Shown piece after piece: positions 12,101 through 15,100 of a stretch of 64,000 nt of DNA; the first letter of the stretch is position 1; each line of letters starts with the position of its first letter. The stretch lies in assembly GCF_057098645.1 (NCBI RefSeq), contig NZ_CM169472.1. One strand, written 5' to 3'. Made by a program: the position numbers.

Positions 12101-15100
12101 TGACAATTAATCATCGAACTAGTTAACTAGTACGCAAGTTCACGTAAATAAGGGTATCGACAATGAAAGCAATTTTCGTACTGAAAGCTTGGTGGCGCAC
12201 TTCCTGAAACGGGCAGTGTATTCACCATGCGTAAAGCAATCAGATACCCAGCCCGCCTAATGAGCGGGCTTTTTTTTGAACAAAATTAGAGAATAACAAT
12301 GCAAACACAAAAACCGACTCTCGAACTGCTAACCTGCGAAGGCGCTTATCGCGACAATCCCACCGCGCTTTTTCACCAATTGTGTGGGGATCGTCCGGCA
12401 ACGCTGCTGCTGGAATCCGCAGATATCGACAGCAAAGATGATTTAAAAAGCCTGCTGCTGGTAGACAGTGCGCTACGCATTACAGCTTTAGGTGACACTG
12501 TCACAATCCAGTCCCTTTCCGGCAACGGCGAAGCCCTGCTGACACTACTGGATAACGCCCTGCCTGCGGGTGTGGAAAATGAACAATTACCAAACTGCCG
12601 TGTGCTGCGCTTCCCCCCTGTTAGTCCACTGCTGGATGAAGACGCTCGCTTATGCTCCCTTTCGGTTTTTGACGCTTTCCGCTTATTGCTGAATCTGTTG
12701 AATGTACCTAAGGAAGAACGAGAAGCCATGTTCTTCGGCGGCCTGTTCTCTTATGACCTTGTGGCGGGGTTTGAAGATTTACCGCAACTGTCAGCGGAAA
12801 ATAACTGCCCTGATTTCTGTTTTTATCTCGCTGAAACGCTGATGGTGATTGACCATCAGAAAAAAAGCACCCGCATTCAGGCCAGCCTGTTTGCTCCGAA
12901 TGAAGAAGAAAAACAACGTCTCACTGCTCGCCTGAACGATCTTCGCCAGCAACTGACCGAAACCGCGCCACCGCTGCCGGTGGTTTCCGTGCCGCATATG
13001 CGTTGTGAATGTAACCAGAGCGATGAAGAGTTCGGTGGCGTAGTGCGTTTGTTGCAAAAAGCGATTCGCGCCGGAGAAATTTTCCAGGTGGTGCCATCTC
13101 GCCGTTTCTCTCTGCCCTGCCCGTCACCGCTGGCGGCCTATTACGTGCTGAAAAAGAGTAATCCCAGCCCGTACATGTTTTTTATGCAGGATAATGATTT
13201 CACCCTGTTTGGCGCGTCGCCGGAAAGTTCGCTCAAGTATGACGCCACCAGCCGCCAGATTGAGATCTACCCGATTGCCGGAACACGTCCACGCGGTCGT
13301 CGTGCCGATGGTTCACTGGACAGAGACCTCGACCACCGCATCGAACTGGAAATGCGTACCGATCATAAAGAGCTTTCTGAACATCTGATGTTGGTGGATC
13401 TCGCCCGTAATGACCTGGCACGCATTTGCACCCCCGGCAGCCGCTACGTCGCCGACCTCACCAAAGTTGACCGTTACTCTTACGTGATGCATCTGGTCTC
13501 CCGCGTGGTCGGTGAGCTGCGCCACGATCTCGACGCCCTGCACGCTTACCGCGCCTGTATGAATATGGGGACGTTAAGCGGTGCGCCGAAAGTGCGTGCT
13601 ATGCAGTTAATTGCCGAGGCGGAAGGTCGTCGCCGCGGCAGCTACGGCGGCGCGGTAGGTTATTTCACCGCGCATGGCGATCTCGACACCTGCATTGTGA
13701 TCCGCTCGGCGCTGGTGGAAAACGGTATCGCCACCGTGCAAGCCGGTGCTGGCGTAGTCCTTGATTCTGTTCCGCAGTCGGAAGCCGACGAAACCCGTAA
13801 TAAAGCCCGCGCTGTACTGCGCGCTATTGCCACCGCGCATCATGCACAGGAGACTTTCTGATGGCTGATATTCTGCTGCTCGATAATATCGACTCTTTTA
13901 CGTACAACCTGGCAGATCAGTTGCGCAGCAATGGGCATAACGTGGTGATTTACCGCAACCATATCCCGGCGCAAACCTTAATTGCACGCCTGGCGACGAT
14001 GAGCAATCCGGTACTGATGCTTTCTCCTGGCCCCGGTGTGCCGAGCGAAGCCGGTTGTATGCCGGAACTCCTCACCCGCTTGCGTGGCAAGCTGCCCATT
14101 ATTGGCATTTGCCTCGGACATCAGGCGATTGTCGAAGCTTACGGGGGCTATGTCGGTCAGGCGGGCGAAATTCTCCACGGTAAAGCGTCGAGCATTGAAC
14201 ATGACGGTCAGGCGATGTTTGCCGGATTAACAAACCCGCTGCCGGTGGCGCGTTATCACTCGCTGGTTGGCAGTAACATTCCGGCCGGTTTAACCATCAA
14301 CGCCCATTTTAATGGCATGGTGATGGCAGTACGTCACGATGCGGATCGCGTTTGTGGATTCCAATTCCATCCGGAATCCATTCTTACTACCCAGGGAGCT
14401 CGCCTGCTGGAACAAACGCTGGCCTGGGCGCAGCAGAAGCTAGAGCCAGCCAACACGCTGCAACCGATTCTGGAAAAACTGTATCAGGCGCAGACGCTTA
14501 GCCAACAAGAAAGTCACCAGCTGTTTTCAGCGGTGGTGCGTGGCGAGCTGAAGCCGGAACAACTGGCGGCGGCGCTGGTGAGCATGAAAATTCGCGGTGA
14601 GCACCCGAACGAGATCGCTGGGGCAGCAACCGCGCTACTGGAAAACGCAGCGCCGTTCCCGCGCCCGGATTATCTGTTTGCTGATATCGTCGGTACTGGC
14701 GGTGACGGCAGCAACAGTATCAATATTTCCACCGCCAGTGCGTTTGTCGCCGCGGCCTGTGGGCTGAAAGTGGCGAAACACGGCAACCGTAGCGTCTCCA
14801 GTAAATCTGGTTCGTCGGATCTGCTGGCGGCGTTCGGTATTAATCTTGATATGAACGCCGATAAATCGCGCCAGGCGCTGGATGAGTTAGGTGTTTGTTT
14901 CCTCTTTGCGCCGAAGTATCACACCGGATTCCGCCACGCGATGCCGGTTCGCCAGCAACTGAAAACCCGCACCCTGTTCAATGTGCTGGGGCCATTGATT
15001 AACCCGGCGCATCCGCCGCTGGCGTTAATTGGTGTTTATAGTCCGGAACTGGTGCTGCCGATTGCCGAAACCTTGCGCGTGCTGGGGTATCAACGCGCGG

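Follow-up and report, generated by a model that had tools for sequence, protein, structure and literature searches.

A textbook trp attenuator with a natural, very probably neutral or nearly neutral, Gly-to-Ala allele at trpL codon 9 in an Escherichia coli chromosome of the O145:H28 type

The stretch of DNA analysed here (the window: 64,000 nucleotides of contig NZ_CM169472.1, RefSeq assembly GCF_057098645.1) contains the control region of the trp operon, in which a promoter with its operator is followed by the short leader ORF trpL, a series of hairpin-forming regions ending in a terminator, and trpE (Table 1). The promoter/operator stretch, compared over 12040-12148, is identical to that of K-12 MG1655 and is taken to be the known K-12 trp promoter. 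The transcription start was likewise placed on what is established for K-12, where the trpL AUG lies at +27; here the AUG falls at +28, because of an extra T at 12149. The ORF has its own Shine-Dalgarno sequence (SD), UAAGGGU, which ends 7 nt before the AUG, and its tandem Trp codons lie near its end; translation of the opposite strand of the ORF gave no start codon, and nothing is encoded there. The RF00513 covariance model scores above its threshold, the GC-rich terminator and its U-run lie 5' of the trpE ATG at 12299, and the whole element is positioned between a TrpR-type promoter and trpEDCBA. Region 1 overlaps the Trp codons, and by prediction hairpins 1:2, 2:3 and 3:4 exclude one another; both 1:2 and 3:4 are present in the minimum free energy (MFE) structure of the free leader calculated with ViennaRNA. 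In the collinear genome of the O145:H28 strain RM12761, annotation places rnm upstream on the other strand and trpD, trpC(F), trpB and trpA after trpE. Judged by these sequence features, the locus is a textbook ribosome-mediated transcription attenuator of E. coli trpEDCBA, and its parts are intact.

Table 1. Positions of the trp control features in the window
Feature	Position	Strand	Basis or remark
trp promoter: -35 TTGACA (12100-12105), -10 TTAACT (12123-12128), 17-bp spacer	12100-12128	+	read from sequence
TrpR operator palindrome CGAACTAGTTAACTAGTACG, overlapping the trp promoter	12115-12134	+	read from sequence
trp mRNA transcription start (+1), AAGUUCACG...	12136	+	established for K-12, applied to identical sequence
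Extra T in the trp mRNA 5' UTR, AAAAAGGG to AAATAAGGG, at +14, immediately 5' of the trpL SD	12149	+	alignment
trpL leader peptide ORF (14-residue peptide, then stop)	12163-12207	+	translation of the window; annotated trpL / WP_001386774.1 in genomes with an identical ORF
Rfam RF00513 Trp_leader, full length	12184-12277	+	91.4 bits (gathering score 41), covering model positions 1-100 of 100
trpL codon 9, GCT (Ala; K-12 GGT, Gly)	12187-12189	+	changed base 12188
Predicted hairpin 1:2 (pause / anti-antiterminator), core about 12190-12227	12187-12230	+	ViennaRNA folds (MFE, pairing probabilities)
Tandem Trp codons 10 and 11 (TGG TGG), attenuator sensing codons	12190-12195	+	identical to K-12
Predicted antiterminator 2:3 (K-12 nt 74-119)	12210-12255	+	masked fold; unchanged by the variant
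Terminator 3:4: hairpin 12250-12270, eight-T run 12270-12277	12250-12277	+	sequence, MFE structure and RF00513 consensus helix
trpE, 520 aa, first structural gene behind the attenuator	12299-13861	+	98% identical to K-12 TrpE; RM12761 annotation

Alignment of 12040-12320 with K-12 identified two differences only, the extra T and a G to C change at 12188. Numbered along the K-12 leader RNA this change is G52C, and only 2 nt separate it from the Trp codon pair on its 3' side. A sequence-only reading of this DNA had claimed that the leader carries Ala instead of Gly before Trp-Trp and that the GCT codon forms a HindIII site; both are seen, the AAGCTT at 12185-12190 being made of GCT, the AA before it and the T after it. 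The GGT that it had given for codon 9 of K-12 is borne out by translation of MG1655 trpL (b1265). It had also placed the change next to the attenuation control codons, and this is correct, yet the base falls outside the Rfam consensus helices: in the RF00513 consensus it is a conserved position without a pairing partner, and stem 1:2 is 4 nt away on its 3' side. The comparison with K-12 and O157 genomes that it had proposed returned GGT for K-12 and for O157:H7, and GCT for other reference genomes.

The distribution of the two codons was surveyed by exact matches to a 57-nt query centred on 12188 among 5421 complete E. coli records. The GCT version is present in 322 records and the K-12 GGT version in 5041, with about 58 records otherwise different; the resulting Ala share of about 6% counts records, many of them clonal, and is not a population frequency. 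The carriers of GCT include the O104:H4 outbreak strains, 55989, O145:H28, O169:H41 and O157:H16, and come from humans, cattle, pigs, poultry, a baboon and the environment; GGT is carried by K-12, O157:H7, O26, O127:H6 and APEC O18. RefSeq lists the Ala peptide as WP_001386774.1 and the Gly peptide as WP_001700591.1, and the former is annotated in every Ala carrier retrieved, namely CP062811, FORC_069, RM12761, O104:H4 2011C-3493, O169:H41, O157:H16, HB-Coli0 and 30COLEC. Neither peptide string turned up in any paper when the literature was searched. Natural strain variation, which the sequence-only reading had suggested, is thus supported by the 322 exact matches, and on this comparison of genomes the Gly-to-Ala change is an ordinary natural minority allele that RefSeq already annotates. 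Separately, within the E. coli genome set, six matches to the trp leader were on plasmid-labelled records and some genomes had up to three copies.

Given that the restriction site is conveniently placed inside trpL, and that trp promoter/leader fragments are classic vector parts, AAGCTT might be an engineered site in DNA from a cloning construct or from a laboratory strain that had been manipulated. However, the chance of this is negligible for several reasons: first, the same codon occurs in the 322 complete genomes, from several hosts and the environment. Second, tens of kilobases of the window run collinear with the chromosome of a wild O145:H28 strain, native trpEDCBA lies downstream, and no vector sequence abuts AAGCTT. 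Third, HindIII sites are, if anything, below expectation, with 13 observed across the window against 18.7 +/- 4.1 in shuffled sequence, and so are not enriched. The engineered origin was rejected on the wild genomes, the native context and this lack of enrichment, and the HindIII site created by the Ala codon is incidental. An error of sequencing or assembly at 12188, which would equally account for a single-base difference from the K-12 reference, is hardly credible either: the same base is found in hundreds of independent assemblies, including about 20 close O145 genomes, and this explanation was rejected because the allele is shared by all 322 records.

The chromosomal setting was identified with a 13-kb query around the operon, to which about twenty O145:H28-type STEC genomes are at least 99.9% identical, while the next best match reaches 98.2%. 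The window is collinear with RM12761 and 99.94-99.96% identical to it over 1-7966 and 9267-25936, the upper figure applying over 16.7 kb. Codon 9 of RM12761 is also GCT, annotated as WP_001386774.1, and the Ala codon was therefore inherited with the O145:H28-type lineage. Further along, the resemblance to this strain decreases. A lambdoid prophage tail region at 27268-34171 and beyond, with gpJ and tail assembly genes assigned by collinearity with RM12761, is 92-97% identical to it, in contrast to the backbone at more than 99.9%, and Rfam matches follow for two tRNAs (39497-39736, minus strand), the sok antitoxin RNA (43020-43169, minus strand) and DicF (50286-50337, plus strand). The drop in identity and these matches together indicate that the second half of the window is prophage unlike that of the nearest complete genome.

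The ancestral state of codon 9 was approached by scanning species-representative genomes with the pattern GNNTGGTGGCGCACTTCCTGA, which gave 36 loci. Within the codons that this pattern admits (the first codon base is fixed as G and the WWRTS-stop coding sequence is exact, so other codons could not match), codon 9 is Gly in all 33 of the loci that are enterobacterial trp leaders, 27 of them with GGT and 6 with GGC, whereas residues 2-8 are variable. These 33 loci come from Escherichia albertii, E. whittamii, another Escherichia sp. and E. coli, and from Citrobacter, Enterobacter, Salmonella, Leclercia, Lelliottia and Raoultella. The other three matches, which read GCC and come from a Streptomyces, a myxobacterial MAG and a clostridial MAG, have no leader ORF and were set aside as chance. 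Since Gly occupies the position in every enterobacterial leader sampled, Ala is derived within E. coli. The invariance of Gly9 among the sampled species hints, at the level of sequence, at a constraint on the residue or on G51/G52. Over the sampled genera the C-terminal GWWRTS of trpL is invariant, and many genomes of Citrobacter have an upstream ATG in frame that would lengthen the leader to MKKVSEMKA..., giving 20 aa against 14.

Neighbour-joining (NJ) trees were built from 5 kb flanking trpL in 14 strains, with the two variable sites removed. Carriers of Ala and of Gly are interspersed on these trees and the Ala allele lies on at least five flanking haplotypes: the Ala carriers O104:H4 and HB-Coli0 are neighbours of O26 (Gly), 30COLEC (Ala) groups with K-12 and Z1323PEC0011 (Gly), and Res13-Sevr-PER07-33 (Ala) groups with O157:H7 (Gly). 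This interspersal, together with pairwise differences among Ala haplotypes that reach about 2-2.7%, led to the rejection of the idea that Ala marks one lineage only. The scatter therefore requires recombination or recurrent mutation, and these two are indistinguishable at the leader itself, which is too conserved, with no linked markers between 12008 and 12378. Selection would also fit, and this raises the possibility that Ala9/C52 is a functional regulatory variant, spread or recurrent in E. coli under selection, acting through a longer hairpin 1:2 that raises basal termination of untranslated leaders, through a change of P-site residue or tRNA while the ribosome waits at Trp10, or through an altered trans-acting rnTrpL sRNA. 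Both the homoplasy of the Ala allele on the flanking trees and the invariance of Gly in 33 of 33 leaders whose neighbouring residues vary would be expected of such a variant. However, recombination in E. coli is enough to scatter an old neutral allele over haplotypes, and a frequency of about 6% of records, among them many clonal duplicates, is unremarkable. A regulatory function for the variant is considered unlikely.

Folding predictions bear on the same question. C52 is predicted to let two further pairs, G51-C94 and C52-G93 (12187-12230 and 12188-12229 in the window), close the foot of hairpin 1:2 on the far side of a U-U mismatch, and the calculated probability of the 52-93 pair is 0.70, against 0.00 with G52, which counts in favour of a functional variant. 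Against this, the energy effects are small and disappear wherever a ribosome covers nt 52: relative to G52, C52 lowers the MFE by 2.8 kcal/mol in an isolated 45-100 fragment and by 0.7 kcal/mol in the whole free leader. The pause-stage transcript is also unaffected, since an RNA of nt 1-92, which extends to the pause site, has an MFE of -21.6 kcal/mol for both alleles, nt 93-94 having not yet been made. Folds of the 2:3 fragment (71-125) and of the 3:4 fragment are identical for both alleles. Under ribosome masks the terminator in the MFE structure is the same for both, and the complete 141-nt leader at equilibrium gives the terminator always, whatever the mask; because attenuation is kinetic, only truncated (1-125) masked folds were compared. 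In such a fold, which lacks region 4 and has nt 39-68 masked as if by a stalled ribosome, P(75-118) of the antiterminator is 0.958 for both alleles. In summary, the additional pairs of C52 are predicted in the ribosome-free leader only, with pause hairpin, antiterminator and terminator unchanged.

These predictions can be set against the established mechanism of the attenuator. A shortage of charged tRNA-Trp makes the ribosome on trpL stall at the Trp pair, codons 10-11; region 1 is then covered, the 2:3 antiterminator forms and RNA polymerase reads into trpE. With ample tryptophan the ribosome instead runs on to the stop codon and occupies part of region 2, so that the 3:4 terminator forms and transcription ends. 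From the geometry of these complexes, nt 52 would be inside the ribosome in both decision states, and the extra pairs would then matter only in untranslated leader RNA, where termination is presumably already favoured. On the folding model, the stronger hairpin 1:2 could slightly raise termination in untranslated transcripts. The substitution also alters the residue that is held in the P-site while Trp10 is awaited. The phenotype expected of Ala9/C52 from these models is none, or slight.

The remaining route by which the variant could be functional is in trans. According to reviews, rnTrpL, the attenuator RNA set free in E. coli, base-pairs with the dnaA, sanA and mhpC mRNAs (PMC12612679), which counts in favour of a functional allele; in rhizobia it is the leader peptide, peTrpL, that acts in trans (PMC12612679, PMC12310071, bioRxiv 10.1101/606483). 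For the E. coli trpL peptide, neither these reviews nor the preprint documents a role in trans, which counts against a functional consequence of the Gly-to-Ala change. The reviews give no coordinates for the pairing of rnTrpL with dnaA, and an unconstrained RNAduplex calculation of the leader against the dnaA mRNA hybridised the whole molecules without singling out a specific region.

Other changes near the operon are rarer than the Ala allele. The extra T at 12149 is found in 1 of the 5421 records, CP062811 (the pig isolate Res13-Sevr-PER07-33 from Quebec), and is absent from K-12, FORC_069, RM12761 and the O145:H28 relatives. Both of its carriers, the window and CP062811, have GCT at codon 9, yet every flanking tree separates them widely. 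The T is predicted to strengthen SD:anti-SD pairing slightly, from -4.5 to -5.1 kcal/mol, with spacing and leader MFE unchanged, and could be real or an assembly error. In trpE, two adjacent base changes at 13334-13335 turn codon 346 from AGC into CAC (Ser346His); CAC was found in none of the 2521 E. coli genomes that match the surrounding 60-mer (best identity 96.7%), and all comparator strains have AGC. Upstream of the operon, yciQ is interrupted by an IS3-family element of 1310 bp (7958-9267), with a 3-bp GAA target duplication, inverted ends TGAACCGCCCCGGG, an orfA of 108 aa, an orfB of 295 aa and an ALIL frameshift pseudoknot at 8293-8409. The element is absent from this site in RM12761. 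Its size and ends presumably resemble those of IS629. A 3-bp (CGC) deletion relative to RM12761, at about 7322 in a GC-rich repeat close to where yciQ ends, adds to the disruption. Downstream, an IS2 occupies about 25937-27267, where ORFs for TnpB (301 aa) and TnpA (136 aa) match the NCBIfam IS2 models; it lies in an effector/prophage-remnant region downstream of espM1/nleG, and RM12761 has no insertion there.

The strongest form of a selective explanation would combine purifying constraint on Gly9 (G51/G52) with an Ala9/C52 variant that has been selected after arising or being transferred repeatedly. Were this so, the longer hairpin 1:2 would shift translation-independent termination, or the activity of the rnTrpL sRNA would be altered, and the extra T beside the SD and TrpE S346H might jointly mark a strain-specific retuning of tryptophan synthesis; this combination is regarded as very unlikely. 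It is suggested instead that the locus is, very probably, a textbook trp attenuator with a neutral or nearly neutral natural allele at codon 9 (GGU to GCU, G52C), the Ala allele being a standing polymorphism that came with the O145:H28-type chromosome. Though it departs from K-12 within a regulatory element known from textbooks, the allele is ordinary E. coli variation, for which engineering, error and a new mechanism are all unneeded. The scatter of Ala over unrelated trp haplotypes also makes natural isolates a ready-made test of the role of this position in attenuation.

Compared with the K-12 trp attenuator (b1265, RF00513), the element of the window is the same in promoter, operator, SD core, 14-codon ORF, Trp codons and stop codon and, base for base over 12040-12320, in regions 1-4, the U-run and the distance to trpE. 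It differs in having GCU (Ala) where K-12 has GGU (Gly) at codon 9, with two extra predicted pairs in 1:2, and in the extra U at +14, just 5' of the SD, that K-12 is without. The genomes with the WP_001386774.1 allele, O104:H4, 55989, O145:H28, O169:H41 and others, have leader peptide and leader DNA identical to those of the window, and differ from it by being without the extra T, CP062811 excepted. The trp leaders of Salmonella, Citrobacter, Enterobacter, Leclercia and Lelliottia share the 14-residue core ending in WWRTS, with the same codons there, whereas they have Gly (GGT or GGC) before the Trp pair and differ in residues 2-8. A further comparison is with rnTrpL/peTrpL of Sinorhizobium meliloti, likewise a trp attenuator with a 14-aa leader peptide and an attenuator RNA that is reported to act in trans; its peptide sequence, however, is unrelated apart from the Trp codons, and a trans role of the peptide is documented for the rhizobial system and not for E. 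coli.
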